Shown piece after piece: positions 3,880 to 61,904 of a DNA stretch of 64,000 nucleotides. The DNA lies in contig JAIVZN010000001.1 in the NCBI GenBank assembly GCA_048634875.1, positions 3,858 to 67,857 of the forward strand, read 5' to 3'. Below the pieces are notes generated by a model. That model was not told where the DNA came from, searched no databases, and saw nothing but the letters and a program-made list of their open reading frames with translations. How positions within the stretch are numbered: position 1 is the first letter of the stretch; each line of letters starts with the position of its first letter. Position numbers and translations under genes: made by a program. Source of the DNA: Deltaproteobacteria bacterium. GTDB taxonomy: Bacteria; CG03; SLGR01; JBDRKX01.

Positions 3880-3886
3880 TTAATAA

Positions 3887-3915
3887 TTTATATAATAATT
3901 AACAATTATTGTCAA
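3887..3915 (-). promoter_or_regulatory. Candidate sigma70-like promoter (TTGACA-17-TATAAA) ending 7 nt before the PPC-gene ATG, implying a leaderless transcript
   Basis: Minus-strand TTGACA at 3915-3910 and TATAAA at 3892-3887; AT-rich context so chance match is possible. Confidence 0.3.
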
Positions 3916-3931
3916 AAATTCATTTCAACCG

Positions 3932-4030
3932 CAAATAAATCCTTTATTGAGACCTAAATGATGTATTTTTTGCGACTTGTGACTTTTTATAGAAACTATG
4001 AAAACTTGTTTGACCCGGCTCATGTCTGTT
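3932..4030. repeat. Dispersed intergenic hairpin repeat, family A, copy 1 (left half plus extension variant)
   Basis: taaatcctttattgagacctaaatgatgtattttttgcgacttgtgactttttat... shared with copies at 9043, 51567, 59077. Confidence 0.85.
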
Positions 4031-4957
4031 TCATGCCGTTTTACACATCTCATAAAAATTACACCATGGACATAACCTCCTATGTTTTGCCAATGGATAA
4101 TATTCTTTTTCCCTTGGTATATTATTTCCAGGATCAAGCAAGACTTCCTTCATTTCATCTATACTATGTTTAATTTCGTTTTCAGTCTCCTTAAGAGACT
4201 CCCTGGAAATAGCAATATCCAGAGTTTTACCTGTCCCTAAATATTCTGCTCTTCCAAGTATATTCTCCTCATTAATACCATATTTTTCCCTGATATACAT
4301 ACAGTAAACACTTATCTGGTTAGGATGGCTCGAATGCTCTTTCCCTGTCTTCCAGTCAACCACTACCCATTTGCCATTGGGTCCTTCAAAGACAAGATCA
4401 GGTATTGCATAAATCGGAGTATCAAAAAGCTCAAATGTATCCATATTCTCAGTAATTCTTATTTTGCACTCATCTTTTAGAATTTCCTTTACACTATCTG
4501 ATTTTATTATATTAGGCACAGATTTCTGCATTTTGTCTTTAATTTTCTCAACAATTTCTTTTAAAACTTTACCGCCATAGTAAAATTCATGCAACATGGA
4601 ATAACTCTTAGGATTTTTAAGCCATTCCTCTCGCTTATTTATGGATTCTTTCCACGCATTATTTAATATATCCCTTACTATATTTATAAGAATTTTTTCA
4701 TCAGGGAGTTTTCCTGTTTGCGTAATAGTATTACAGGTCTTTTCCGCTGCCTGATGTACAGCACTTCCTAGAAGTAGATGAAGCCCTGTCAGTTGCTTTA
4801 AACGGTACGCCTGTTTTGACTCTGGAGAAGCTTCTTCTTCCCATCCGTTATGAGAGAGATAGTAATTGTAATAATATCTTCTCTGACATTCACTGAATGT
4901 AGATTTTCTGGATGAAGACCAGCTCCATACGGGATATTCTGTTCTTTTATATGCCAT
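4031..4957 (-). CDS. PD-(D/E)XK nuclease superfamily protein, Cas4/AddB-like with predicted 4Fe-4S cluster (standalone, no CRISPR nearby)
   Basis: N-terminal SWSSSxxSTFxECxRRYYYNYY motif, catalytic D...VVDWKTGK (D/E-x-K) and C-terminal C-x2-C-x5-C (CPWCNFYEMC). Confidence 0.7.
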   Translation of the reverse strand: MAYKRTEYPVWSWSSSRKSTFSECQRRYYYNYYLSHNGWEEEASPESKQAYRLKQLTGLHLLLGSAVHQAAEKTCNTITQTGKLPDEKILINIVRDILNNAWKESINKREEWLKNPKSYSMLHEFYYGGKVLKEIVEKIKDKMQKSVPNIIKSDSVKEILKDECKIRITENMDTFELFDTPIYAIPDLVFEGPNGKWVVVDWKTGKEHSSHPNQISVYCMYIREKYGINEENILGRAEYLGTGKTLDIAISRESLKETENEIKHSIDEMKEVLLDPGNNIPREKEYYPLAKHRRLCPWCNFYEMCKTA

Positions 4958-5116
4958 CTAAAACCTCCGGCAGGCATGGACGCCTGTCCTACTACAGCAG
5001 AGCAAGCTCTGCCACTACAATTTTTTTCTTTATCAGATAGTGCCGACTATAACAAATGCAAAAATCAAAATGTAAAAATAAAAATGACATATTAAAATTC
5101 AAAATGAAAAATTAAC

Positions 5117-5170
5117 AAATTGTAGATTTACGATTGAAAATTGTAGATTGATAAATCAAAAAATCTACAA
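5117..5170. promoter_or_regulatory. Direct and inverted repeats AAATTGTAGATT x2 / AATCTACAA in 270-bp intergenic region upstream of nuclease gene
   Basis: aaattgtagatt at 5117 and 5138, inverted partner aatctacaa at 5162; similar motif upstream of the Pur-alpha-like gene at 55534-55590. Confidence 0.4.
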
Positions 5171-5227
5171 CCAGTAAATTTAAAACAAAAAGATAATTTT
5201 TAATTTTTGATTTTTTTCAGACACCTG

Positions 5228-7164: not shown

Positions 7165-7235
7165 AATTCAAAACTTGTTTTTTCTTGAGTCCAGAAAATG
7201 TGTTTTGAGTGCAATAAATCGCACCGCTACATTTC

Positions 7236-8933
7236 TTAACTTTCAACTTCAGCAAAGCGTCCTTCCAGTTTCCTACCTGCCAGCTCCATTGCCTTCTCAT
7301 ATGATTTCCTTAAAGTAACTTTGCTGAGGCCTGTTTCTACCATATCCCAGGGAAGCTCCTCCATTTTTTCAAAATCCCTATAATAATAATCCTTCCAATC
7401 CATACCATTATCTTTAAATGCCTTTTCCCAGATATTAAAGTCAAAATGCTCCCCCCATTGATCAAAACGGGCGCCATTCTTCCATGCACTATAAACTACT
7501 ACAGAAAGCGTTGAATCCGCTCTTACCATTATACTCTCTAATATATGCTGTCCGTAATGAATACCTTTAATATCTACTGCGGCTTTTTTCTTTATAAATT
7601 TAATTTTTTCTTCCAGGATATCCGGGTCATTGGCCTTAAGCCACTGAAAAGGCGTGTGAGCTTGAGGCACTAAAGGAGATATAGTAACATTTACTTTCAG
7701 TCCACTAAGTTTTCTCACTTCCCTTATAAACTCAACAATCTCCTGAATATCTTCCATTGTCTCACCGGGTAACCCGACCAAAAAATAAAGCTTTATCTTA
7801 TTCCAGCCTTTTGAGGCAGCAATCTTTGCTGCTTCTATTACATCAGCATTTTTTACATTCTTATTTATTACTCTTTTTAATTTCTCTGACGGTGTCTCAG
7901 GAGCAAAAGTTAAACCTCCTTTTTTAAGTCTTGTAAGCCTGTCAGATAATTCTCCTGGAAAGCTCGCAGGCCTCATACTGGACATCACTATAGAAACACC
8001 TAAATCCCTGAAAGCATAATGAAGTTCGTCTAAAATATCAAGAAGCTCAGGATGGTCTGTTGCAGAAAGCGAAGTAAGAGCTATTTCGTCATGACCTGTA
8101 GAAGCTACTGAATTTTTAGCAATCTCCATGATTTGTTCGGTGCTCTTCTCTCTGTACGGATTATAAATTACCGTTGCCTGACAAAACCTGCAGTTATTTT
8201 TACAGCCCCTGTTTATCTCAATATTAAGACGGTTATGCGGTATATCAACAACTGCAACAGGCGGGTTCACAGGGAAAAACTTATTATTAAACTCAGAATA
8301 TATTGCTATTTCTGTACTTTTGCTTTTACCCGGAATATATACTCCTTTCATATCAAGTGCAATATTTAAAAACTTCTCTTTATCCTGATTTTCTTCAAAT
8401 GTTTTCAGTAGTTCAGGTAACATTGCTTCTGCTTCACCAATATAAATTAAGTCAAGAAACTCTGATAATACCGCAGGATTACTACAGGCAGGCCCTCCGC
8501 CTATGATCAGCGGAGCGGAAACTTTGCGATTTCTCCTGAATAGCTCTATGCCGGCTAAATCAAGCATATTCAAAAAATTCGTATATGAAAGTTCATAATG
8601 AAAAGAGAAACCTATTATGTCAAATTCTTTTGCCGGCGACCTTGTTTCAAGAGAAAACAAGGAAATATTGTTCTGCCTCATCCATTTCTCCATATCAAGC
8701 CACGGAGCAAAGCACCTCTCGCAGGCAAAAGAACTGTGATTATTTATAATATTGCCGACAGTATGATAACCCAAACTGCTCATTCCTATAACATAATCAT
8801 CGGGGAAACACAAAAGAAACTTCTTTGCTCCTTTCTTCCCGGGATAAGAGTTCCATTCTGTACCGAGATATTTACCCGGCTTTTGAAACTGTTTTAATAC
8901 ATTTTCTGTTATCCCTACTCCCTCATTACTCAT
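7236..8933 (-). CDS. B12-binding-domain radical SAM protein (TIGR03960-like uncharacterized family)
   Basis: 565 aa; CKNNCRFCQA CxxxCxxC radical SAM motif; N-terminal B12-binding-like region. Confidence 0.8.
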   Translation of the reverse strand: MSNEGVGITENVLKQFQKPGKYLGTEWNSYPGKKGAKKFLLCFPDDYVIGMSSLGYHTVGNIINNHSSFACERCFAPWLDMEKWMRQNNISLFSLETRSPAKEFDIIGFSFHYELSYTNFLNMLDLAGIELFRRNRKVSAPLIIGGGPACSNPAVLSEFLDLIYIGEAEAMLPELLKTFEENQDKEKFLNIALDMKGVYIPGKSKSTEIAIYSEFNNKFFPVNPPVAVVDIPHNRLNIEINRGCKNNCRFCQATVIYNPYREKSTEQIMEIAKNSVASTGHDEIALTSLSATDHPELLDILDELHYAFRDLGVSIVMSSMRPASFPGELSDRLTRLKKGGLTFAPETPSEKLKRVINKNVKNADVIEAAKIAASKGWNKIKLYFLVGLPGETMEDIQEIVEFIREVRKLSGLKVNVTISPLVPQAHTPFQWLKANDPDILEEKIKFIKKKAAVDIKGIHYGQHILESIMVRADSTLSVVVYSAWKNGARFDQWGEHFDFNIWEKAFKDNGMDWKDYYYRDFEKMEELPWDMVETGLSKVTLRKSYEKAMELAGRKLEGRFAEVES

Positions 8934-9042
8934 TCTTCATTCCTTTTTTTCATATGTAAATAAACCATTTATCGGGCTTGATAAATCAAGCCCCTACAAA
9001 ATCAAGCCTTTACAGTTTTGCGTAGGGGTCAGATTTATCCGA

Positions 9043-9215
9043 CCATTTATTGAGTCCTAAATGATGCATTTTTTGCGAGCTTTAAGACTTTTGCCAAAGG
9101 CAAAAAGTCTCCGGAGCAACAAAATACATTTTTAGGGCTCAATTATTTTCACCCAGCTCCTGTACGCAGGAGCTGGATTCATCCGCTTTTGTGCTGGCTC
9201 GCCGGCATGTCCGTT
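9043..9215. repeat. Dispersed intergenic hairpin repeat family A, copy 2 (both halves plus extra hairpins)
   Basis: ccatttattgagtcctaaatgatgcattttttgcgagctttaagacttttgccaaaggcaaaaagtctccggagcaacaaaatacatttttagggctcaattattttcaccc, then cagctcctgtacgcaggagctg hairpin; region 8940-9040 also holds hairpin gggcttgataaatcaagccc. Confidence 0.85.
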
Positions 9216-10472
9216 TCACCTGCCAATAATCTCCGTTCTTCTATTTATATTTAAAAGCACCCCTATCAATGCCATAAATAAAACCATCCCTGTACCACCG
9301 TATGAAACAAGCGGGAACTGCACTCCTATTACAGGAAGTAATCCAAGAGTAACACCTGTGTTTAACACAACCTGCGCAAATATCAGCGCAAAAATTCCGC
9401 CTGCAATTAATCTGCCGCTTAAATCTTCTGTCCTTTCCATTATTCTTAAAATCTGCCAGAGCAGTATTCCTATAAAAGAAAGTATTGCTATGGCTCCCCA
9501 AATTCCAAGCTCTTCGGAAATAGTGGCAAAAATAAAATCAGTATGTCTTACGGGCAGAAATCCAAGCTGAGTCTGCGTTCCGCCAAATAAACCTTTGCCA
9601 AAAATCCTTCCCGAGCCTATCGCTAAAAGCGACTGCCTGATATTGTAACCCACGCCTAATGGATAAAGCTCAGGAATCATAAATGAAATAATCCTTTTTT
9701 TCTGGTACATTTTAAGAAAATTAGACCCTAAAATACCTGCGCCTGAAGAAATCCAGAATAAAAATATCAACCATAATAAATATTTTAAGTTTAAATATTT
9801 CAATACTTTTCTGGCTTCCATGAAAATAAAATATATAATTACAGATGCTATAAGAGGATAAAGCATGTATTTCAAATTTAATAGAGAGAGAGATTTCACG
9901 CTGAGATAACTCTCTAAAAATAAAGTTACTACCGCAATCCCCGCATATGGCAATGCTATAACCATCCAGTTTGTATTAACCGGCGCGACCTCAAGCATCA
10001 TAGCAAGGACAGGAATAAAAAGAATTGCAGAACCGGCATCAGGCTGAACTGTTACTAAAGCCATGACAATAACTGTGGGTATAAATGCATAAAGCAATCT
10101 GTTATATTTTCCTATTATTAATGCTAAAAACATAATCATTGAAAACTTTACAAATTCTACCACCTGAAAATGAAAAACTCCAAAATTAAACCATCTTCTT
10201 CCGCCGTGAATCTCAACTCCAAAAACTAATACACCAATTAACAGCAAAACTGAAACAAAATAAAATAATGGACTTAACTCTTCCAAAATTTTATACGGAA
10301 AACTCCTTAAAATAAACATAATTGCCACACCGATAAAAACTGCAAAAGTCTGTTTAATATACAGCGTCTGAAAATCCGCTGAGTTTATAGTTGAAGATAA
10401 TACCATAACTATACTCAGCATTCCTAAAAATAATGTAATCACTAAGATTATATTCTCAATTTTTTTTCTCAT
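9216..10472 (-). CDS. rodA: SEDS-family peptidoglycan glycosyltransferase RodA (FtsW/RodA/SpoVE family)
   Basis: 418 aa polytopic membrane protein; downstream of PBP2 and mreBCD. Confidence 0.85.
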   Translation of the reverse strand: MRKKIENIILVITLFLGMLSIVMVLSSTINSADFQTLYIKQTFAVFIGVAIMFILRSFPYKILEELSPLFYFVSVLLLIGVLVFGVEIHGGRRWFNFGVFHFQVVEFVKFSMIMFLALIIGKYNRLLYAFIPTVIVMALVTVQPDAGSAILFIPVLAMMLEVAPVNTNWMVIALPYAGIAVVTLFLESYLSVKSLSLLNLKYMLYPLIASVIIYFIFMEARKVLKYLNLKYLLWLIFLFWISSGAGILGSNFLKMYQKKRIISFMIPELYPLGVGYNIRQSLLAIGSGRIFGKGLFGGTQTQLGFLPVRHTDFIFATISEELGIWGAIAILSFIGILLWQILRIMERTEDLSGRLIAGGIFALIFAQVVLNTGVTLGLLPVIGVQFPLVSYGGTGMVLFMALIGVLLNINRRTEIIGR

Positions 10473-13583: not shown

Positions 13584-14627
13584 TTAATATTTTTTGTAGT
13601 ACGGAGATATGCGCTTTGATTTTTTTAAATTGTCCATCTGCTCCAGATATTTTCCTGTGCCCATTACCACGCAATTCATAGGTTCATCTGCAATATGTAC
13701 AGGAAGAGAGGTAGCTTCTCTTAACAAGTCAGTTATCCCGCCCATCAAAGCACCGCCCCCGACCAGAACAATCCCGCGATCAACTAAATCAGCAGAAAGC
13801 TCAGGTGGAGTCTGATTAAGAGTATCTTTAATAACTTTTACTAATTCTTTCATGGGCCCTGCTAAAGATTCTCTGATATTATCAGTTGATATTGTTATGA
13901 TCTTTGGTAAACCGCTTACTAAATCTCTACCCTTTATTTCCATTTCCTTTGATTCTGTAGTTGGATATACGGAACCAATTTTTATTTTTGCTTCTTCAGC
14001 AGTTCTTTCTCCTATAATCATATTTTCTTTTTCTTTAAAATGCTCCACTATTGCCTGATCAAAGTCATCCCCTGCTATTCTTAAAGCATTTGTTAAAACC
14101 ATTCCCCCGAGGGAAATAACAGCTACTTCCGTAGTCCCTCCCCCTATATCAACAATCATATTTCCTGCAGGCTCATACACAGGCAGTTCTGCTCCAATAG
14201 CTGCTGCCATAGGCTCTTCAATAATATGTACCTGGCGCGCTCCTGCTCGCTCTGCGGATTCTCTTACCGCTCTTCTTTCAACCTCTGTGCAGGAAGATGG
14301 AACACTGATTACTATACTGGGATGTAAGAGACTTTTTCTCGTATGAACTTTTTTTATAAAATACCTTATCATCCTCTCAGTAGTCTCAAAATCAGCTATA
14401 ACTCCATTTTTAAGAGGCCTGACTGCAGTTATACTTGCAGGTGTCCTGCCGAGCATCCTTTTTGCGTCTATTCCCACTGCCAGTATATCATCAGTATCTT
14501 TGTTTATTGCAACAACAGAAGGTTCCCTTAAAACTATGCCTCTTCCTTTTACATAAACCAACACATTTGCTGTACCTAAATCTATTCCCATATCGTTTGA
14601 AAATAATCCAAATAAATAATTAAACAT
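13584..14627 (-). CDS. mreB: Actin-like rod shape-determining protein MreB (start may be Met at 14591)
   Basis: 347 aa; MGIDLGTANVLVYV... actin/Hsp70 fold signature. Confidence 0.92.
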   Translation of the reverse strand: MFNYLFGLFSNDMGIDLGTANVLVYVKGRGIVLREPSVVAINKDTDDILAVGIDAKRMLGRTPASITAVRPLKNGVIADFETTERMIRYFIKKVHTRKSLLHPSIVISVPSSCTEVERRAVRESAERAGARQVHIIEEPMAAAIGAELPVYEPAGNMIVDIGGGTTEVAVISLGGMVLTNALRIAGDDFDQAIVEHFKEKENMIIGERTAEEAKIKIGSVYPTTESKEMEIKGRDLVSGLPKIITISTDNIRESLAGPMKELVKVIKDTLNQTPPELSADLVDRGIVLVGGGALMGGITDLLREATSLPVHIADEPMNCVVMGTGKYLEQMDNLKKSKRISPYYKKY

Positions 14628-14940: not shown

Positions 14941-15018
14941 TGCCTAATTCTCCATTCTCTCTTTTTTTAGTGCACAATCTCTTAGTCTCCCAGTCTCCTA
15001 ATCTCCAATTCTTAATTC

Positions 15019-17884: not shown

Positions 17885-18648
17885 AATAAGTCAGTTAAAT
17901 TTCTATGTCCTTTTTCAGTTATAGCAACTGTGTTTTCAAAATGACATGAAAGCTGACCATCTTCTGTTACTACAGTCCAGTTGTCTTCTTTTGTTCTAAT
18001 ATTATACTTACCAACATTTATCATAGGTTCAAGCGCTAAAACCATGCCTGATTTAAGAATTAATCCTGTATTTTTTCTTCCGTAATTTGGCACCTGAGGT
18101 GGCTCATGTAATTTTCTTCCAATTCCATGCCCGACAAGATCCTTTACAACGCTGTACCCCGCACTTTCAGCTACCTGCTGTATCGCATGGGAAATATCGT
18201 ATAATTTGTTATTAGTATACATTTTTGATATTCCCATTTCAAGGGCTTTTTTAGTAACCTCAATTAAATCTTTCTCTTTTTTGCCTATTTTACCAACTCC
18301 AACTGTAAAAGCCATATCCGTATAAAAACCCTGCCATATTCCACCAATATCAATACTTATAATATCTCCTTCCTTTAATACCTTATCCATGGAAGGTACT
18401 CCATGGACTATCTCCTCATTTACAGATGTACAGATTACTGCTGGAAAAGGCGGATTCCCGTAATTTAAAAAAGCTGGCAACAATTTCTTTTTCTTAAATA
18501 ATTTTCTTGCCTTCTTATCCAAATGCATTGTTGTAATTCCAGGTGAAACCATATTTTTCAATTCCCGTGCAATTTCAGAAAGAAGCTGCCCGCCTGTATA
18601 CATTATGTTTATTTCAGTTAAATTTTTTATATCTACCATATTCCTCAA
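17881..18648 (-). CDS. map: Methionine aminopeptidase type I
   Basis: 255 aa; pita-bread fold metal ligands (D..D..H..E..E pattern). Confidence 0.9.
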
Positions 18649-18718
18649 TTCTCAATTCTTTACCTAATCTCGCAATCTCCCAGTCTCCTAATCTCCAATT
18701 TTTACTATCAAAGAACAA

Positions 18719-19249
18719 CTACACAAATGCTCTTATATCTTCAAAGATTTCATCAATTTTTCTATTGCCGTCTATCTCATTTAAAATATGCTTTTTTCTA
18801 TAATAATCAATTAAAGGTTGGGTTTGTTTATAATAAGTCTCAATTCTCGCTTTAATAGTGTCTTCTGTATCATCTTCCCTTTGTCTGTTTTTCAGCCTTT
18901 TAATTACTTCTTCCTCTGGAATTGTAATATAAAAAACCCTGTCTAAATTCTCCAATTTATCAAACTCTTCTGCCTGAATTATAGTGCGGGGAAACCCGTC
19001 TAAGATATAACCATCCTTCACATCCTCTTGACTCATTCTGTCTTTTACTATACCTAAAACTATATCATCAGGTATAAACTTTCCTTCTTTCATTATTTTT
19101 TGCACCTTTACTCCAAAATCAGTTCTTTTTTCAGCAGCATCCCTGAAAATATCTCCTGTTGAAATATGAGGAATTCTTAAAAACTCAGCAAGCTTTTTTG
19201 CCTGAGTTCCTTTACCTGCGCCTACAATTCCAATCATCACTATCTTCAC
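18719..19249 (-). CDS. adk: Adenylate kinase (short form, no zinc lid)
   Basis: 176 aa; GxxGxGKGT P-loop, between secY and map. Confidence 0.9.
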   Translation of the reverse strand: MKIVMIGIVGAGKGTQAKKLAEFLRIPHISTGDIFRDAAEKRTDFGVKVQKIMKEGKFIPDDIVLGIVKDRMSQEDVKDGYILDGFPRTIIQAEEFDKLENLDRVFYITIPEEEVIKRLKNRQREDDTEDTIKARIETYYKQTQPLIDYYRKKHILNEIDGNRKIDEIFEDIRAFV

Positions 19250-22601: not shown

Positions 22602-22684
22602 TAAGGAATGTGGTATGAGGTATGTGGGAGTAGGGAATAATTTTTTTCCCCTCATTCCTCATTCCTATACCCTCATTCTTCGTT
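22602..22684. repeat. Repeat family B copy (rpsH-rplF junction)
   Basis: Near-identical to 21028 and 24151 copies. Confidence 0.9.
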
Positions 22685-23083
22685 CTACCACACATATAAA
22701 ATTACTTCACCGCCAAGATGGTTCTTTCTGCATTCCTTATCAGTCAGCAAACCTCTTGAAGTTGATATTATTGCTCTTCCCAAACCCTCAAGTACTTTTG
22801 GAATGTTATCTACTCCAACATAAATCCTGCGGCTGAGATGTGAAATTCTCTTTATATCCTGTATTACAGAATCGCCATCCACCGTATATTTTAAATATAT
22901 TTTCAATATTCCCTGTTTGTTATCTTCAATATTTTTATAATTTGCAATATATCCCTCATCCTTTAAAAGGCGGGCAATCTCCTGCATTATTTTTGACGAC
23001 GAAACATCAACCTGGCTCTTTTTCCGCACAAGAGCATTTTTTACACGACAAATCATATCTGATATTGGATCTGTTACTACCAT
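22685..23083 (-). CDS. rpsH: 30S ribosomal protein S8
   Basis: 132 aa; S8 signature. Confidence 0.95.
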
Positions 23084-24150: not shown

Positions 24151-24231
24151 TAAGGAATGTGGTATGAGATATGTGGGAGAAGGGAATAAACATTTTTCCC
24201 TCATTCCTCATTCCTATACCCTCATTCTTCA
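24151..24231. repeat. Repeat family B copy (rplN-rplX junction)
   Basis: Near-identical to 21028 and 22602 copies. Confidence 0.9.
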
Positions 24232-24600
24232 TTATATTACCTCCGGAGCAAGTGAAATTATTTTTGTAAATTCTTTCTCTCTTAACTCCATTGCTATCGG
24301 ACCGAATACCCTGGTTCCTCTGGGTTGTTTTTTTTCATCTATTAAAACAGCGCCGTTATCATCAAATCTTACAACAGTTCCATCTTTCCTTTTAACAGGA
24401 TATTTAGTTCTAACTATCACTGCTTTTACTACCTCTCCCTTTGAAACACCGCTGGCAGGAATAGCATCCTTAACTGCGCCTACAATTATATCGCCAACCC
24501 TGGCGTATCTTTTTCTTGTACCTCCAAGTACATTAATACACTGTATTTTTTTTGCCCCGGAATTATCCACAACATTTAATAAGGTTTCCCTCTGAATCAT
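24232..24600 (-). CDS. rplN: 50S ribosomal protein L14 (start [10 protein letters not shown])
   Basis: L14 signature; ATGA overlap with rpsQ. Confidence 0.93.
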
Positions 24601-29282: not shown

Positions 29283-29594
29283 TTATGCCTTTATCTCCAC
29301 CCCGATGCCTGAAGGAAGCTCTAATTTACCAAGTTCATCAACTGTTACCGAAGTCGGATTATGTATGTAAATTAATCTCTTATGTATCCGCATTTCAAAT
29401 TGATCCATACCCCTTTTATCCACATGAGGCGACCTCAGTACTGAATATTTCTTTATTCTTGTCGGAAGCAGTATCGGGCCGGAAACCCTGGAGCCTGTTC
29501 TGGTAATTGTATCTACTATGCGCTTGACAGATTTATCAAGCATCCTGTGGTCATATCCCTTTAATTTAATCTGTATTTTCTGTTCAACCGCCAT
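29283..29594 (-). CDS. rpsJ: 30S ribosomal protein S10
   Basis: 103 aa. Confidence 0.95.
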
Positions 29595-30784
29595 TATTCA
29601 ACTACTTCAGCTACAACACCCGCTCCAACCGTATGTCCGCCTTCCCTTATCGCAAACCTGAGTCCCTGCTCCATTGCCACTGCCTGTATTAACTCGCCCT
29701 CTATATCCACATTATCGCCGGGCATCACCATCTCCCTGCCTTCAGGTAACTTTAACACTCCTGTCACATCTGTCGTACGAAAATAAAATTGAGGCCTGTA
29801 TCCGCTGAAAAACGGAGTGTGTCGCCCGCCTTCTTCCTTGCTTAATATATATACCTTCCCCTTAAACTTCTTATGCGGTGTTATCGTCTTAGGCGCCGCT
29901 ATCACCTGACCCCTCTCTATCTGCGTCTTATCTACACCTCGAAGCAACACTCCTATGTTGTCGCCGGCCTGCGCCTCTTCCATCTCCTTGCGAAACATCT
30001 CTACTCCTGTTACCACGGTCTCCTTACTGTCCATTAATCCCACTATCTCTACCTTGTCCGATACCTTTACCTTACCCCTCTCTACCCTGCCTGTCGCTAC
30101 TGTACCGCGCCCTGTTATTGAAAATACATCTTCTACGCTCATCAAAAACGGCTTATCAACTTCCCTGTCAGGCTGGGGTATATTCGCATCCAGCGCTTCC
30201 ATTAATTCCCCTATTACTTTACCTTCATCGCTATCCGCCTCACTATTTAACGCCTTTAACGCAGAACCCTTTATTATTGGTATATCATCTCCGGGAAACT
30301 CATATTTGTTTAATAATTCCCTTATCTCTAACTCTACTAACTCCAACAACTCAGGATCATCTACCTGATCTACCTTATTCATAAATACTACCATTGCAGG
30401 CACGCCTACCTGCCTCGCTAACAATATATGTTCCTTTGTCTGAGGCATCGGACCATCTGCCGCCGACACCACCAGTATCGCGCCGTCCATCTGCGCCGCT
30501 CCTGTTATCATATTCTTTATATAATCCGCATGACCGGGACAGTCTATATGCGCATAATGCCTGTTCTCTGTCTCATATTCCACATGCGCTGTCGCTATCG
30601 TTAAACCCCTCTCCTTTTCCTCGGGCGCATTGTCTATCTCATCTACATTCTTGCAGGATGCCAGTCCTTTGGAACTTAAATATCTCAATATCGCTGCTGT
30701 TAATGTCGTCTTCCCGTGATCTACATGCCCTATTGTCCCTACATTAACATGAGGCTTTGTCCTCTGAAATTTTTCCTTTGCCAT
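29594..30784 (-). CDS. tuf: Elongation factor Tu (copy 1, str-operon copy)
   Basis: 396 aa GHVDHGKTT...; ~98% identical at nt level to second copy at 45306-46496. Confidence 0.97.
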
Positions 30785-42095: not shown

Positions 42096-42160
42096 GTTCC
42101 GTGAAGCGTAAAGCGTAAATCGTGAAGTCTTTTTCATCTTTACGCTTTACCCTTCACGCT
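42096..42160. repeat. Repeat family C hairpin (GTAAAGCGTAAA/TTTACGCTTTAC arms) spanning rplJ stop to rplL SD
   Basis: cgtgaagcgtaaagcgtaaatcgtgaagtctttttcatctttacgctttacccttcacgc; related copies at 46515, 46661, 56914, 15990. Confidence 0.8.
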
Positions 42161-42670
42161 TTTTAAATCATTTAAAGCATATAAAACTTTTTTGATTACC
42201 CCGGCTAATGAATTACATAAGCCCTGGATTGGGGCATTTAAAGCATATACTGTCTTAGCTATCATTACATCTTTAGATGGCAAATCTGCTATTTTCTCAA
42301 TTTGAGAGCTATTCATAAAGGTATCCATTATAATAGCTGCTTTAAATTCCATTAATTTATTTTCATCAACATATCCTTTAAAAATTTTTATTGCCTTAGA
42401 TGGATCTTCGTTGCCTAATAAAACTGCTACAGGTCCTTTAAAAAATTCTTTAATATCAAAATAACTTTCAATACCTGCTTCTTCAATAGCCCGGAGCGCC
42501 AGTCTGTTCTTAACCACTCGCATTTTACAATCAGCTTCCTTTAATTTTTTTCTTAACTCATTAATACTATTAACGCCAAGACCCTGGTATAGAGTAAGTA
42601 TTACACTTTTTGAATTTTTTAACTCTTCAACAAATCCCTTAACAAATTGTTTTTTTTCTTTTAACTGCAT
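42140..42670 (-). CDS. rplJ: 50S ribosomal protein L10
   Basis: 176 aa; 177-nt leader upstream (42671-42847). Confidence 0.93.
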   Translation of the reverse strand: MQLKEKKQFVKGFVEELKNSKSVILTLYQGLGVNSINELRKKLKEADCKMRVVKNRLALRAIEEAGIESYFDIKEFFKGPVAVLLGNEDPSKAIKIFKGYVDENKLMEFKAAIIMDTFMNSSQIEKIADLPSKDVMIAKTVYALNAPIQGLCNSLAGVIKKVLYALNDLKSVKGKA

Positions 42671-43522: not shown

Positions 43523-43650
43523 CTCTCATTATCCTTACATCTATAAATCTCCCTCTAACTTCTTTCCAGAGAAATTCAGAGATTGAGAAACTGTGTTAGA
43601 AATTAAGAAAATAGAAAACAGATATTAAGAATATTTTGATTTTTAAATTT

Positions 43651-43705
43651 CTTAATCTCTTCTCAGTCTCTTAATCTCCTAATCTCCTAATCTCCTAATC
43701 TCTAA
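43651..43705. repeat. Tandem short repeat (CTAATCTCC x3 on plus strand = GGAGATTAG in mRNA sense) in rplK-rplA spacer
   Basis: tctcagtctcttaatctcctaatctcctaatctcctaatctctaat; similar motifs at 14981-15018, 18655-18705, 45010-45030, 50500-50535. Confidence 0.8.
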
Positions 43706-45141: not shown

Positions 45142-45306
45142 TTATCCCTTAATTGACTTATGCACCGTATGCTTTCTACAAAACCTACAGTGCTTCTTTA
45201 ATTCTAACTTATCCTGTCTGTGAAGTTTATTTCTTCTGTATGTATAGTTTCGGCGTTTACACTCCTGACATTCAAGATGCTGAACTATCCTATCCTTTTT
45301 TGCCAT
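45142..45306 (-). CDS. rpmG: 50S ribosomal protein L33 (not in ORF track)
   Basis: [54 protein letters not shown]; zinc-ribbon L33; start overlaps tuf stop (TAATG). Confidence 0.9.
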   Translation of the reverse strand: MAKKDRIVQHLECQECKRRNYTYRRNKLHRQDKLELKKHCRFCRKHTVHKSIKG

Positions 45307-46496
45307 TATTCAATTACCTCAGCTACAACACCAGCTCCAACCGTATGTCCGCCTTCCCTTATCGCAAACCTGAGTCCCTGCTCCATTGCCACTGCCTGTA
45401 TTAACTCGCCCTCCATATCCACATTATCTCCTGGCATCACCATCTCCCTGCCCTCTGGTAACTTTAACACTCCTGTCACATCTGTCGTACGAAAATAAAA
45501 TTGTGGCCTGTATCCGCTGAAAAACGGTGTGTGTCGCCCGCCTTCTTCTTTGCTTAATATATATATCTTCCCCTTGAACTTCGTGTGCGGTGTTATCGTC
45601 TTAGGCGCCGCTATCACCTGCCCCCTCTCTATCTGCGTCTTATCTACACCGCGCAGCAACACTCCTATGTTGTCGCCGGCCTGCGCCTCTTCCATCTCCT
45701 TGCGAAACATCTCTACTCCTGTTACCACGGTCTCCTTGCTTTCCATTAATCCCACTATCTCTACCTTGTCCGATACCTTTACCTTACCCCTCTCTACCCT
45801 GCCTGTCGCTACTGTACCGCGCCCTGTTATTGAAAATACATCTTCTACGCTCATCAAAAACGGCTTATCAACTTCCCTGTCAGGCTGGGGTATATTCGCA
45901 TCCAGCGCTTCCATTAATTCCCCTATTACTTTACCTTCATCGCTATCCGCCTCACTATTTAACGCCTTTAACGCAGAACCCTTTATTATTGGTATATCAT
46001 CTCCGGGAAACTCATATTTGTTTAATAATTCCCTTATCTCTAACTCTACTAACTCCAACAACTCAGGATCATCTACCTGATCTACCTTATTCATAAATAC
46101 TACTATTGCTGGCACGCCTACCTGCCTCGCTAATAATATATGTTCCTTTGTCTGAGGCATCGGACCATCTGCCGCCGACACCACCAGTATCGCGCCATCC
46201 ATCTGCGCCGCTCCTGTTATCATGTTCTTTATATAATCCGCATGACCGGGACAGTCTATATGCGCATAATGCCTCAAGTCTGTCTCATATTCCACATGCG
46301 CTGTCGCTATCGTCAATCCCCTCTCCTTTTCCTCGGGCGCATTGTCTATCTCATCTACATTCTTACAGGATGCCAGTCCTTTGGAACTTAAATACTTCAA
46401 TATCGCTGCCGTTAATGTCGTCTTCCCGTGATCTACATGCCCTATTGTCCCTACATTAACATGAGGCTTTGTCCTCTGAAATTTTTCCTTTGCCAT
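45306..46496 (-). CDS. tuf: Elongation factor Tu (copy 2, tufB-like, downstream of tRNA cluster)
   Basis: 396 aa; differs from copy 1 at ~6 residues. Confidence 0.97.
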
Positions 46497-46514
46497 ATCT
46501 TCCTCCTCTTTATT

Positions 46515-46570
46515 TCCGTAAAGCGTAAAGCGTAAATCGTGAAGTGTTTTTTTTTACCCTTTACGCTTTA
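46515..46570. repeat. Repeat family C hairpin between tRNA-Thr(GGT) and tuf
   Basis: ccgtaaagcgtaaagcgtaaatcgtgaagtgtttttttttaccctttacgctttactctttacg. Confidence 0.8.
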
Positions 46571-46576
46571 CTCTTT

Positions 46577-46652
46577 ACGACCATGGTGGAGCTGGGAACG
46601 GGATTCGAACCCGTGACCTCATGCTTACCATGCATGTGCTCTACCAGCTGAG
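46577..46652 (-). tRNA. tRNA-Thr (anticodon GGT)
   Basis: GCTGGGATAGCTCAGCTGGTAGAGCACATGCATGGTAAGCATGAGGTCACGGGTTCGAATCCCGTTCCCAGCTCCA. Confidence 0.88.
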
Positions 46653-46660
46653 CTATCCCA

Positions 46661-46712
46661 GCATCATAAACCGTAAAGCGTAAATCGTGAAGTGTTTTTC
46701 TCTTTACCCTTT
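46661..46712. repeat. Repeat family C hairpin between tRNA-Gly and tRNA-Thr(GGT)
   Basis: ccgtaaagcgtaaatcgtgaagtgtttttctctttaccctttacgctttac. Confidence 0.8.
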
Positions 46713-46714
46713 AC

Positions 46715-46788
46715 GCTTTACAACCCTGGAGCGGGTGATGGGGATCGAACCCACATTACTAGCTTGGAAGGCTAGGGCTTTACCACTA
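46715..46788 (-). tRNA. tRNA-Gly (anticodon TCC)
   Basis: GCGGGTGTAGCTTAGTGGTAAAGCCCTAGCCTTCCAAGCTAGTAATGTGGGTTCGATCCCCATCACCCGCTCCA. Confidence 0.88.
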
Positions 46789-50537: not shown

Positions 50538-51560
50538 TCATTTTATCAGTCTGCCGCATTCTTCCATGACCAGTTTTCTTAATTTATCTTTCTCTTCAGT
50601 CTCCATGAAGGCAGCTTCAACACCATTCATTATAATCTCAACAAGTTCACTTATAGAAATTCCTATCTCCATTGCCTTTTCAAATTCGTATGTTAAATCT
50701 ATTCCGCTTACACCCCTGTCATCTGTGTTTAATGTAACTTTAATGCTACTTGCAATAAATTTTTTTACCGGATGAGTATTATAATCTTTAACAACCTGTG
50801 TATGTATATTTGATGTAAGACATATTTCAAACGGGATTCTTTTTAAAGCCATTTCACGCATTAATTTTTCATCTTCAACAAGTGTAACACCATGCCCTAT
50901 TCTATCAGCGCCTATCTGTACAGCTTCCCTGATATATTCAGGACCTGCTGCTTCGCCTGCATGAATAGTTACAGATACTCCCTCATTTTTGCATATCTGA
51001 ATTGGTTTTTCAAAATCCCTCAGTGGGAATTTATTCTCATCGCCAGCAACATCAATGCCAGAGACACCCTCATTCCTTAATTCCACCGCACATTTTGCAG
51101 CCTGGATTGAATCCTCCAGCGGAGTTCCGCGATACAAACACAGCAGCACCCCGCACTTTATGGGAAATTCTTTTTCACCCTTTTTAACTCCTCTTAGTAC
51201 TGCTTCCACAACATCAGGTATGGGGAATTTTTCAGTTTTCTGAAGCACAGGAGCAAACCTTATCTCAAGATACTTCACATTTTCTTCAGCGCAATCCCTG
51301 CATAATTCATATGATATCCTCTCCTGTGCATATGGGTTTGTCAAAAGCGGGTAAAAGACTTCAAATCTCTTTAGAAAGTCGCTTAAACATTTACAATTAA
51401 TGGACACTCTTACAAATTTTCTCAAATCCTTTACATTGTCAGCAGGCAAAGAAAAATTCTGCATTTTAGCAAGCTCCAAAATCGTAGAAGTTCTTATGGA
51501 GCCATCTAAATGACAATGTAAATCAACTTTAGGTAATTTTCTTATAATTTCCTCTTTCAC
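50538..51560 (-). CDS. add: Adenosine deaminase (GTG start)
   Basis: 340 aa; LPKVDLHCHLDGS metal-binding signature. Confidence 0.88.
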   Translation of the reverse strand: MKEEIIRKLPKVDLHCHLDGSIRTSTILELAKMQNFSLPADNVKDLRKFVRVSINCKCLSDFLKRFEVFYPLLTNPYAQERISYELCRDCAEENVKYLEIRFAPVLQKTEKFPIPDVVEAVLRGVKKGEKEFPIKCGVLLCLYRGTPLEDSIQAAKCAVELRNEGVSGIDVAGDENKFPLRDFEKPIQICKNEGVSVTIHAGEAAGPEYIREAVQIGADRIGHGVTLVEDEKLMREMALKRIPFEICLTSNIHTQVVKDYNTHPVKKFIASSIKVTLNTDDRGVSGIDLTYEFEKAMEIGISISELVEIIMNGVEAAFMETEEKDKLRKLVMEECGRLIK

Positions 51561-51566
51561 TTGTAA

Positions 51567-51700
51567 ATAAATCCTTTATTGAGACCTAAATGATGTATTT
51601 TTTGCGACTTGTGACTTTTTAGTCTCCGGAGCAACAAAATGTATTTTTAGGGCTCGATTATTTTCACCCACTTTTGTGCCGGCGAGCCGGCTTGTCCGTT
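51567..51700. repeat. Repeat family A copy 3 (compact, both halves)
   Basis: taaatcctttattgagacctaaatgatgtattttttgcgacttgtgactttttagtctccggagcaacaaaatgtatttttagggctcgattattttcaccc...; its terminal AAAGGA supplies the SD for add. Confidence 0.85.
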
Positions 51701-51731
51701 CCATGTCTTTTTTGACATTACCAAAGATATT

Positions 51732-59035: not shown

Positions 59036-59076
59036 ATAAAATACTTACCTTTCGACATAATTCCTTTCATGTGTAA

Positions 59077-59292
59077 GTAAATCCTTTATTGAGACCTAAA
59101 TGATGTATTTTTTGCGACTTGGGACTTTTTAGTGAAACTATGCCGTTAAAAAACTAAAATTTGTTTGACTCAGCTCTTGCCTGCAAGGGCTGGGGAGTTT
59201 TTTAGTTTTAGGCATAGTTTCATATGCCAAAGGCAAAAAGTCTCCGGAGCAACAAAATACATTTTTAGGGCTCAATTATTTTCATCCTCTTT
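59077..59292. repeat. Repeat family A copy 4 (extended variant with nested hairpin insert); right end replaced by group II intron
   Basis: Shares both halves with copies 2 and 3; diverges from them at ...attattttcat|cctctttgag. Confidence 0.85.
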
Positions 59293-59524
59293 GAGTGAAT
59301 CTGTAGAATAGAGAATTGGCGTAGTAGTTTAGGTTAAGCCTATTTGTTTCTGCCCCTTTCGTCTGGCAGTGCCTCAATATCTTATCCATGCTCTATCTCC
59401 AACTCCCCCTCATCAAACCATGCAGGAAGTTCTCCTTCACACGGCTTTCCGATAACCACTCGTCTAAAAGCTTTCACTATTTAGCCACTTTCTATTGGTA
59501 GTTAAATAATATATCCCCAACACC

Positions 59525-59773
59525 TTATACAGAATAACGGTCTGGATATTTGTTAAATCCAAATCCTTTCTTCTGTTTGCGTTTTTGTATAAAACGTCTA
59601 ACTTTATTCTCTGTGTAATATCGGAGTTTACCAAACCATTTTGAGGAATTTCCTTCAATGAAGTAGTTAGCCCACCCTCTTATTACAGGATTAAGCCTTG
59701 AAACAATTACCTCTGCCTTTTCTGGTATTCGGTGATTGGTTATCTTTCTTATCCTGTTTCTGATTACACTCAT
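59525..59773 (-). pseudogene. Group II intron maturase (X/GIIM) domain in a different frame from the RT ORF; no En domain
   Basis: 82 aa; LNPVIRGWANYF hallmark; separated from RT ORF by a ~45-nt frame change. Confidence 0.75.
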
Positions 59774-59818
59774 AGCTTTAGCTGATGGAAAGGATATGAT
59801 ATACCTTATCTTCTTTCT

Positions 59819-60769
59819 TTAATCATATACCTTCTTAAAACTAAAGCCAAGAAAGGTGAATTTGTCTTTCTCCATATCCAGTATTTTTGTCTTCTCCTTA
59901 TTTAGCTTTAAGTTTAATCCCTTAATTACTTTAATTAAGGTCTCCCATATTTCCTGTGGATACCTACAAGATAGAATGACAAAATCATCTGCATACCTTA
60001 TGAGATGAGCAGCAAGTTTGGATTCATATCTTTTCTTCCAGATTTTATCTAACTCATTAAGATAGATATTCGCCAGAAGAGGCGATATTATCCCTCCTTG
60101 TGGAGTGCCAGATATGTTATTTCTTAAGATTGCCTTTTCACTTACTACTCCTGCTGTTAGCCATTGTTTTATTAGCCTGAGAATGTTCTTATCACATACC
60201 CTTTTAGCTATTAGTTCTAACAAACGGTTATGGGATATAGTGTCAAAGTATGAGCTTAAGTCAGCGTCAACTACATATCTATAGCCCCTATTCAATAGCC
60301 TTTTAATTATCTTCAAGGCTTGATGGGCTGAACGCTTCGGTCTAAATCCATATGAACAATCCTGAAATTCAGCTTCAAAAATAGGTTCTATTACTATCTT
60401 TACTGCCATCTGTGCCACTCTATCCTTGACAGTAGGAATTCCTAAAGGTCTTTTAGTTTTATCAGGTTTGGATATATAGACTCTTTTGACCTTGTCGGGT
60501 CCATAAACCTTCTTCTTTAGTTCTCTTTGGATTCCTTTAAGAAATTCTTCTACCCCCATTTGCACAATCTCTTCAATCGTTTTGTCATCTATCCCTGCAC
60601 ACCCTTTATTACTGCAAACCCTTCTCCAACTCTCCACAAAAACATCCCACCGATAGACCTTATCATACAGAGTATAAAAACGCTTTACCTCCTTTCGCTT
60701 TGCCTTTAGATATAGCCCCCTCTGAAATTCCCGAACCTTTTCTCGGGGAGTTAATAGCCTTTTTGGCAA
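59819..60769 (-). CDS. Group II intron reverse transcriptase (RT domain; ORF terminates before maturase domain)
   Basis: 316 aa; ...PQGGIISPLLANIYL..., IRYADDFVIL, GFSFKK. Confidence 0.9.
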   Translation of the reverse strand: MPKRLLTPREKVREFQRGLYLKAKRKEVKRFYTLYDKVYRWDVFVESWRRVCSNKGCAGIDDKTIEEIVQMGVEEFLKGIQRELKKKVYGPDKVKRVYISKPDKTKRPLGIPTVKDRVAQMAVKIVIEPIFEAEFQDCSYGFRPKRSAHQALKIIKRLLNRGYRYVVDADLSSYFDTISHNRLLELIAKRVCDKNILRLIKQWLTAGVVSEKAILRNNISGTPQGGIISPLLANIYLNELDKIWKKRYESKLAAHLIRYADDFVILSCRYPQEIWETLIKVIKGLNLKLNKEKTKILDMEKDKFTFLGFSFKKVYD

Positions 60770-61795
60770 TCTCCCAGTCCTTCCTTCGGGGGCATAGTTA
60801 ATAATGCCCCTTCACTCTGTCTTAGTTTTGTTGTCTCTTGACTTCATAAGTTCGCCTAAAAAACAGCCATTTAGGCTGTTTTTCTTTATGTCTCCGTTTA
60901 TGAGTATATCCGACCACCTTAATAACCTCCTTTGACTTCGGATTTCCCTTATACAAAGAAGCCTTTCGTTATCAAGGCTCTCCCAAGTTCCCTTCGTAAT
61001 CTTTCTCAGCATACCGCCCCTGATACCCCGAGTAGAGTCACCCCTTCTTACTCCTGTTAATCCAAGATGACTGTCGGGCTTCCCTCAAACATGAAAAGGT
61101 CGCCTCTACTTCTTAATGAACTAACGAGTCTACTTATAGGTTCATTCACATTACGGTCTGCTGTTTTGCGTCTCCCAACTAAATCGGGATTTGTCGAGTG
61201 GCTAAAGCTTCGAGATTAGTCCCTTATCTTCACTCCTCGCTACATAACCGAACAGGAAATTATTATGACTGACACCTTTCAGTCAGTTAGATTACAAAGA
61301 GCTTTTCTTGACATGCCATGTCCCTTTCTTATTATTGTTATATAATACATAGTTTTTAATTGCTTATCAAATTTTTTACCAACAATATCTCCGACAATAT
61401 AAATCAATGGGACAATATATACTATTTTAATCAAAGTTATTTTAGCACAAATTTTTCTTATGGGCAAATATGAGTCTTATCCCAAGACTGGATGGGTCAA
61501 GATATTTATTATTAAGGGTATGTTCAACATTACGAAAGATATTTGAAATATATGAGCAAGCGAAAAGACGATGTTGGCAATTACAATTAGAGTTTCAATA
61601 ATTGGAATAGTTGTTAATAACTTTTTGATATACAGGGATAAGGGGGATAAAAGGACAAGTGCATCCAAAAGTCTGGGTTTTGCCTGAATATATAGGGAAA
61701 TCTGGTTAGTACGGTGTAATTCCTTGACTTTTATTCCAAAGAAAGAAATATAGGATAGATTTTTTCAGCTAAAAAGCTGATTTTGGCGGAAGCCA

Positions 61796-61811: not shown

Positions 61812-61904
61812 CTTGGATCGTGAATTTATATTATACAATGATATAAAAAAGAAGTATAATTAATATGTATTTTCAAGGTTTTATAGATTTTAAGGAGGAT
61901 AATC

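Follow-up and report, generated by a model that had tools for sequence, protein, structure and literature searches.

Family A, an intergenic palindromic repeat found in a 64-kb window (the whole stretch of 64,000 nt analysed here), is on balance probably a lineage-restricted, non-autonomous and non-coding MITE-like element that is co-transcribed within operons and behaves like the ERIC, Correia and BOX repeats. Within reach of the data, it is confined to one species-level lineage. Judged by its sequence, it also looks like a new family, which belongs to no named one, falls outside the definition of REP and matches no Rfam family. An earlier interpretation made from the letters of the window alone (the sequence-only reading) had proposed a MITE/REP-like mobile repeat. 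This proposal is supported: the repeat is non-coding, dispersed between unrelated flanks and variable between strains, with imperfect terminal inverted repeats, a narrow distribution and contig breaks inside it.

Copies of the repeat in the window

We scanned the window with a 32-mer from the left half of the repeat, which matched at 3944, 9047, 51576 and 59086 with zero to two mismatches, and with a 44-mer from the right half, which matched at 9108, 51623 and 59241 with zero to three. None of 100 shuffled controls contained any match to either. When each copy was compared with the window by sensitive blastn, only the same four places were found (pairwise E-values among copies: 1e-8 to 1e-24), with 60-220 nt common to the four copies. 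The four intergenic copies, all in the same orientation, are thus located where the sequence-only reading had put them (Table 1). It had also named the possibility that they are parts of a larger duplicated region. Segmental duplication is ruled out as their source, since blastn similarity between copies is limited to ~45-135 nt and the flanks are unrelated.

An nhmmer profile search detected a fifth piece of 31 nt (E 0.003) that the earlier count had missed; a 26-nt stretch of it is 100% identical to a divergent copy, A', of a sister strain. The tally is four copies and one fragment in the 64 kb of the window, and four copies in ~60 kb of the sister strain. Copies measure 100-225 nt and are non-coding, with ORFs of only 2-16 codons; this agrees with the size of a MITE, which stays below ~400 bp, and with the lack of a transposase gene in such elements.

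The hairpins named earlier were confirmed: agacttttgcc/ggcaaaaagtct, cagctcctg/caggagctg, and the pair gccggcGAgccggc and gctggcTCgccggc, in which the loop is flipped. Conservation extends 15-20 nt beyond the ends first given, with ...TTTAYTTRC-NNN-TGAAA on one side and GGRTGAAAATAAT on the other (R side). Copy 1 is not the left half only, as had been stated, because it also contains the right part of the inner palindrome X, whose right half recurs in copy 2' of the sister strain, and a remnant of module M. Copy 2 reaches further left, to 8956, because a 70-nt foreign insertion splits off its terminal block.

Table 1. Family A copies, their parts and a nested insertion in the window
Feature	Position	Strand	Description
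Copy 1, truncated form	3931-4033	-	M remnant, right part of X and L arm; without R arm
Copy 1, M remnant			Overlaps TGA stop of PD-(D/E)XK nuclease gene
L-arm fragment of divergent subfamily A'	7181-7211	-	Adjoins GTAG-tagged hairpin (~7209-7230)
Copy 2, displaced terminal block	8956-8972	-	GGTTTATTTAC (gene orientation); contiguous with L arm in sister strain
Insertion nested in copy 2 (70 nt, not Family A)	8973-9042	.	Absent at this site in sister strain
Copy 2, main body	9043-9218	-	Module M, GC hairpin, R arm, side hairpin, L arm
Copy 2, side hairpin			Perfect, AGACTTTTGCC-AAA-GGCAAAAAGTCT
Copy 2, R arm	9108-9154
Copy 2, hairpin	9152-9177		CCCAGCTCCTG..CAGGAGCTGG
Copy 2, module M	9178-9218		Overlaps rodA stop codon
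Copy 3, terminal block		-	Carries AAAGGA and add GTG start (51558-51560)
Copy 3	51563-51702	-	Module M, R and L arms; X and side hairpin probably deleted
Copy 3, module M	51670-51700		Hairpin GCCGGC-GA-GCCGGC
Copy 4, full-length, master-like form	59074-59298	-	Between group II intron and punA
Copy 4, order in gene orientation			GGATGAAAATAAT; R arm; side hairpin TTTTTGCC-TTT-GGCA; inner palindrome X; L arm; AAAGGATTTACTTAC
Copy 4, inner palindrome X	59133-59222	-	TGAAACTATGCC...GGCATAGTTTCA; GC-rich apex hairpin 59169-59194, then T-run on + strand only

Architecture and folding

The master form of Family A comprises ~200-215 nt and consists of two imperfectly complementary ~45-nt arms, a small side hairpin, the inner 90-nt palindrome X and a GC-rich apex. 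Its left and right halves are imperfect reverse complements, and each complete copy folds as one long hairpin with nested side hairpins. The terminal inverted repeats are imperfect and 30-45 nt long. Like the terminal inverted repeats or long hairpin of a MITE, the arms TTGAGCCCTAAAAATGTATTTTGTTGC and GCAAAAAATACATCATTTAGGTCTCAA are imperfectly complementary. RNA folding gave −69.9 kcal/mol for copy 2 (z −5.3) and −65.4 kcal/mol for copy 4 (z −5.5), with z −5.1 for a further form, and the short copy 3 folded more weakly (z ~ −2). When copy 4 was folded as DNA, z was −9.7 for the + strand and −7.5 for the - strand.

An alignment of all forms showed that copy 4 and A' are collinear over ~190-200 nt with 72% identity and share the order R arm, side hairpin, X-left, GC-rich apex, X-right, L arm. 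Because two subfamilies that differ at 28% of positions have this full layout in common, we regard the long form as the ancestral architecture. Copies 1, 2 and 3, the sister copy 2' and a 50-nt stub, 4', are probably most simply explained as internal deletions of it. In the alignment, the deletion end-points of copies 2 and 3 are located at the bases of internal stems; across the derived forms, the end-points coincide either with such stem bases or with short direct repeats. Internal deletions of such a kind are to be expected in long palindromes. The sequence-only reading had seen a core surrounded by variable nested modules, with 120 bp inserted in copy 4; the reverse is probably true, given the full architecture of the 28%-divergent A'. 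The deletion series is a caution for annotation, as modular-looking repeats need not arise by insertions.

Comparison with a sister strain

We compared the window with contigs of a sister strain (ERZ25746724, ERZ23498918 and SRR22302362), which are 96-99% identical to it in coding DNA (~97.5% in genes). Different forms were found at four of the five comparable sites; the nuclease-PCC site, which holds copy 1, was unchanged (97% identity between the strains). The spacer before punA contains the 216-nt copy 4 in the window and, in two independent assemblies of the sister strain, only GGATGAAAATAATTGAGCCCTAAAAATATATCATTTAGGTCTCAATAAAGGATTTA, the outer ~50 nt. In this stub, the outer arm ends are joined at the repeated hexamer AAAAAT and ~165 inner nt are missing. 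At the rodA-rSAM site, both strains carry module M plus a GC-rich hairpin as well as the L arm, and differ in having the R arm and side hairpin (window) versus the right half of X without R arm (sister). The spacer between the RNase G and nuclease genes contains the complete, 28%-divergent A' copy in the sister strain only, the window having unrelated AT-rich repeats. The rSAM-DUF2344 spacer measures 71 nt in the window, with a GTAG-tagged hairpin and the A' arm fragment, and 8 nt in the sister strain. That strains with ~97.5% identical genes differ at four of five sites indicates rapid remodelling of such palindromes.

The presence/absence polymorphism typical of MITEs was also seen: the A' copy is found only in the sister strain, the A' fragment only in the window, and the family is absent from a relative with 67% identity. 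A filled-versus-empty comparison in a related strain, which had been suggested as a check, revealed the differing forms described above, and no clean pair for a complete copy was found among the compared sites. The sister contigs reach only 60-86 nt past the gene upstream of the copy 3 site, and one of them ends in the likely 5' end of a group II intron. Several short-read contigs begin or end inside the repeat, which proves only that at least two copies exist. The repeats break short-read assemblies of this lineage and could serve as strain markers. No Family A copy was present in 20 kb of sister-strain ribosomal operons or in the 6 kb beyond the window.

Distribution

The conserved core had no match in 185,579 GTDB representative genomes. 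In the JGI metagenomes, the 22-base core was not found, and a relaxed palindromic core gave one match, by chance, in a GC-rich contig. IMG/VR contained no match to Family A, and none was obtained with plasmids and phages. The next relative, GCA_024449895.1, has the same gene order and 67% amino-acid identity in two flanking proteins; it showed no trace of Family A, its spacers being 17-31 nt long or unrelated. A genome scan guided by add found only a 40%-identical Clostridium MAG, and an L11 look-up matched only contigs of the same strain.

Identical flanking proteins are encoded in the MAGs GCA_048634415.1 and GCA_030601005.1, and the best named homologues of two flanking proteins belong to Elusimicrobiota MAGs (52-67% identity). 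A full-text literature search yielded no paper describing such repeats in Elusimicrobiota. Family A documents a small-repeat family in an Elusimicrobiota-like lineage.

The copies had no match at gathering threshold in Rfam release 15. With three copies searched on both strands, nothing came near threshold, the best sub-threshold scores being 17-19 bits versus thresholds of 55-144.

Genomic context and orientation

All genes around the copies are on the minus strand, and each copy occupies a spacer between two co-directional genes: the PD-(D/E)XK nuclease and PCC-domain genes (copy 1), rodA and a TIGR03960-type radical SAM gene (copy 2), a KTI12-like kinase gene and add (copy 3), and the group II intron and punA (copy 4). 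Copies 1 and 2 overlap the TGA stop codon of the upstream gene. The earlier remark that copies are always 5' of minus-strand genes carries no information, as they are equally 3' of the upstream gene. Since all copies are located inside co-directional gene arrays, they would be co-transcribed as long mRNA hairpins.

The presence of copies before add and punA raised the question of a riboswitch or leader for nucleoside salvage. This was ruled out: the other two copies precede unrelated genes, and the sister punA copy is a stub.

Six independent sites show a single orientation relative to the genes. The + strand, which is antisense to the genes, was predicted to fold better by 10-17 kcal/mol in three of four compared copies: −25.3 versus −15.7 kcal/mol on the sense strand for copy 3, −80.1 versus −63.3 kcal/mol for copy 4 and −80.3 versus −65.5 kcal/mol for A'. 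For copy 2, both strands were equal. The + strand has four to seven G.U pairs at places of A.C mismatches on the sense strand, and DNA folding parameters gave an asymmetry in the same direction as RNA. Better folding of the antisense strand, as modelled for these three copies, is not predicted by a purely neutral selfish repeat. The asymmetry is largely inherited from the common ancestor and hence weak evidence. The gene-sense strand is very G-rich (GC3 skew +0.32; GC skew of the + strand in the window, −0.25) and therefore probably the leading strand. Mutational skew is an unlikely cause of the antisense-strand G.U surplus, because strong skew predicts the opposite strand.

A terminator scan flagged no intrinsic terminator on the gene-sense strand in any copy; the only terminator-like site was the X apex of copy 4, on the antisense (+) strand. 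Copies in the opposite orientation would probably terminate operon transcription and be lost, so that only the orientation with the hairpin-plus-T-run on the antisense strand would survive; this may explain the single orientation at the six sites.

Taken together, our results suggest the following course of events for a MITE-like repeat. A trans-acting factor may spread copies to intergenic spacers. After landing, copies would decay fast, losing hairpin segments by internal deletion between short direct repeats. Recombination between copies, together with such deletions, could generate the apparently modular variants. Other small palindromes, for example GTAG-tagged REP-like dimers, may in turn insert into copies. 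For at least one gene, add, the terminal block of the element may supply both ribosome-binding site and start codon.

Other repeats and genes in the neighbourhood

The 70-nt insertion that splits copy 2 consists of two inverted GTAG-tagged hairpins with GATTTATC loops (z −3.7 and −4.0), which are joined tail to tail as a REP-like dimer; the 8-bp direct repeat ccatttat is present on either side (8965-8972 and 9043-9050). The dimer fits the published definition of a tail-to-tail GTAG REP dimer (PMC3733652). Single units of the GTAG hairpin occur elsewhere in the sister strain. The loop GATTTATC is common to the GTAG hairpins at 8965-9050 and ~7209-7230 of the window and at 13630-13655 and 18951-18979 of the sister sequence L007. 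Their stems differ and compensate (GGGCTT/AAGCCC, GGCGC/GCGCC, GGTC/GACC, GTGC/GCAC). Between flanking genes that are ~98% identical, the whole spacer from RNase G to the PD-(D/E)XK nuclease is replaced (window 4958-5227 versus L007 13623-13898): it contains AAATCTACAAT-type repeats and two GTAG-tagged hairpins in the window, and a GTAG hairpin and the A' copy in the sister strain.

A group II intron (~59300-61285, - strand; Rfam match 61146-61281) directly adjoins copy 4 at the R end. The reverse-transcriptase ORF of the intron is in two parts, with the RVT domain at 59819-60769 and the GIIM domain at 59525-59773, and no near-identical paralogues of this reverse transcriptase were found. At the corresponding site, the sister strain has only an ORF-less group II intron remnant (L017 8650-9040). 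At its copy 3 site (L017 16500-16559), the sister strain has an apparently different group II intron, whose 5' end is GTGTGCCGAG. The insertion point is 2 nt past a small stem-loop and coincides exactly with the start of module M in the window.

Spacers just upstream of gene starts often contain short tandem 7-8-nt units that are purine-rich in gene sense, such as GGAGATTA, GGAATGA, CGTAAAG and GAAAGTG (14950-15006, 18640-18696, 43631-43703, 22639-22696, 24188-24245, 42097-42163, 46514-46721 and 8902-8941). These tracts are often inverted blocks able to pair (e.g. 42100-42158). They differ in length and unit between the two strains, and similar ones are present in the relative with 67% identity.

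Nearly all genes of the window are on one strand. The only long + strand ORF near the copies is at 61887-63998; it has at least 704 codons and a signal-peptide-like start, and runs off the window end. Two tuf (EF-Tu) genes (29594-30784 and 45306-46496, - strand) share a 300-nt stretch with 95% identity (repeat D1). Four clustered tRNA genes (Thr, Tyr, Gly, Thr) precede the second tuf, and tRNA-Trp is located just downstream of this tuf. At 3880-3925 (- strand), TTGACA and TATAAA are separated by 17 nt and end 7 nt before the ATG of the PCC-domain gene. The sister strain conserves this arrangement, which points to a transcript, with no leader or almost none, that starts just downstream of copy 1.

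Alternative explanations

Among the alternatives, we place first the possibility that Family A is a single-strand-DNA mobile hairpin of the REP/RAYT or IS200/IS605 kind, which inserts at TGAAA and is recognised as a folded + strand by a tyrosine/HUH transposase; even so we consider it unlikely. Copies 2, 3, 4 and 4' are bracketed by TGAAA, identical everywhere. In gene orientation, the complete copies and the modules M and X all begin with this pentamer, which is found again after the L end; in copies 1 and 2, the first TGAAA includes the upstream stop codon. The array TGAAA-M-TGAA-hairpin-TGAAA-core-TGAAA in copy 2 resembles serial insertions at one target. The single orientation in a region of very strong GC skew, the markedly better folding of one strand through G.T/G.U pairs and the GTAG-tagged REP-like hairpins in the same spacers would also be consistent with such an element.

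However, TGAAA occurs four times per kb on the gene-sense strand anyway and is inherited with the copies, and the divergent A' lacks it at its ends. The target-site duplications of MITEs are direct repeats that vary between sites, or a short target that is fixed. As far as the sequence goes, the bracket could be a duplicated fixed insertion target or, equally, the element's own sequence. Family A is without the GTAG/CGTC tag and is 5-10 times longer than REP. No transposase, no IS with matching ends, no Y1/HUH transposase gene and no RAYT were seen in the ~110 kb of sequence fetched for this species. In the IS608 model, the active strand is expected on the lagging-strand template. The better-folding strand of Family A is the leading-strand template, opposite to this expectation.

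Second, and likewise improbable, Family A could be a selected cis-acting RNA of operons that combines an inter-cistronic hairpin for mRNA processing or stability with a portable translation-initiation region. All copies are in one orientation between co-directional genes. Copies 1-4 and the forms of the sister strain share a conserved terminal block on the L side, AAAGGATTTAYTTRC-NNN-DTGAAA (D: A, G or T). The block resembles a translation-initiation region, with AAAGGA, 11-13 nt and then A/G/T-TG AAA. In copy 3, add can start at the GTG at the earliest; the conserved LPKVDLHCHLDG motif follows 9 codons later, and AAAGGA is located 11 nt upstream of the GTG. The sequence-only reading had taken this AAAGGA for the Shine-Dalgarno sequence of add. 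It is plausible as a putative ribosome-binding site, and the GTG, too, is inside the conserved block. The equivalent position in the other copies opens upstream ORFs of 2-16 codons, one of them overlapping the start of punA. Effects on mRNA stability or RBS/ATG signals of their own are known for REP, ERIC and Correia elements (PMC3184786).

Against a selected RNA, no functional relationship links the genes downstream of the copies (those for a PCC-domain and a radical SAM protein, add and punA). At punA, ~165 of 216 nt are gone from the sister strain, as is the whole R arm at rodA, with flanking genes that are still intact. Moreover, the sense-strand fold is the weaker one, and the next relative, with its short or unrelated spacers, does not conserve the element.

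In third place comes a doubtful extension of the single-strand hypothesis. It holds that Family A, M and X together represent an undescribed site-specific single-strand-DNA element, which would use TGAAA as its insertion target (in many cases the TGA-AA of a stop codon), duplicate the pentamer, build mosaic spacers by serial insertions and be recognised as a one-strand hairpin, and whose terminal ribosome-binding site and start codon would have been adopted by add. Should the TGAAA bracket and the donated start codon be confirmed across the genome, Family A would neatly exemplify a mobile element that provides translation signals.

It is very unlikely that the repeat serves as a terminator or insulator on the antisense strand, similar to SPRITE, with a + strand hairpin plus T-run that stops antisense transcription into the operons. 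The X apex does form a canonical terminator-like site on the + strand only (11-bp stem with 6 G-C, followed by GAGTTTTTTA), the long core hairpin is followed by TATTTTCA on this strand, and the + strand folds better. However, the core hairpin is A/T-rich at its base and was flagged by the terminator scan in none of the copies, X is deleted in most copies, and no + strand promoter or gene that needs termination is located nearby. Selection against terminators on the sense strand explains the orientation equally well. A small RNA gene or promoter cassette, also raised by the sequence-only reading, is scarcely credible despite the strong predicted structure, as there is no Rfam family at or near threshold, no recurring promoter-like site in the conserved core (the promoter scan gave only single 9/12 matches to sigma-70-like sites, one in copy 2 and one in copy 4), a terminator-like site only in antisense, and tolerated loss of most of the structure between strains.

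Comparison with known repeat families

A MITE-like repeat, the explanation that we prefer, has several described counterparts. Like ERIC, Family A is an imperfect palindrome of 100-200 nt that is non-coding, strain-variable and located in intergenic regions that are, or for Family A would be, transcribed. ERIC copies reportedly vary by internal deletions and insertions at fixed positions. The two have no sequence relationship and belong to different phyla, and ERIC is present in tens to hundreds of copies, whereas only a handful of Family A copies have been seen so far. ERIC (IRU) is listed as a MITE of ~127 bp flanked by a TA duplication (PMC3184786); in Family A, by contrast, the only bracket is TGAAA, which does not vary.

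The Correia elements (CREE/NEMIS) of Neisseria are MITEs of ~104-157 bp with TA target duplication, an IHF site and functional promoters (PMC3184786). Family A resembles them in that it has terminal inverted repeats, copies of full length next to internally deleted ones, and locations that vary between strains, as well as in its probable co-transcription with neighbours and its putative ability to contribute expression signals. Unlike in Correia elements, a recurring promoter was not found in the scans of Family A. The BOX elements of Streptococcus pneumoniae are MITE-like, modular and 67-637 bp long (PMC3184786). Common to BOX and Family A are the modular look, conserved end modules pairing around a variable centre, transcription (probable for Family A) and a predicted RNA fold. 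However, BOX varies by tandem copies of the middle module and Family A by nested deletions of a single palindrome.

REP sequences are stem-loops of 20-40 nt with an unpaired GTAG or CGTC tag at one end, and Elusimicrobiota are absent from the phyla listed for GTAG/CGTC REPs in a 2013 survey (PMC3733652). With 130-215 nt and no such tag, Family A differs from REP, and RAYT was not seen; only the 8973-9042 insert and the ~7209-7230 hairpin carry GTAG by a stem-loop. Family A shares with REP, REPIN and BIME the location in spacers just downstream of genes, the mosaics with other repeats, the orientation bias and single-strand folding. In Anabaena variabilis, GTAG dimers are found inside long palindromes (PMC3733652), and the GTAG dimer inside copy 2 is an exact parallel.
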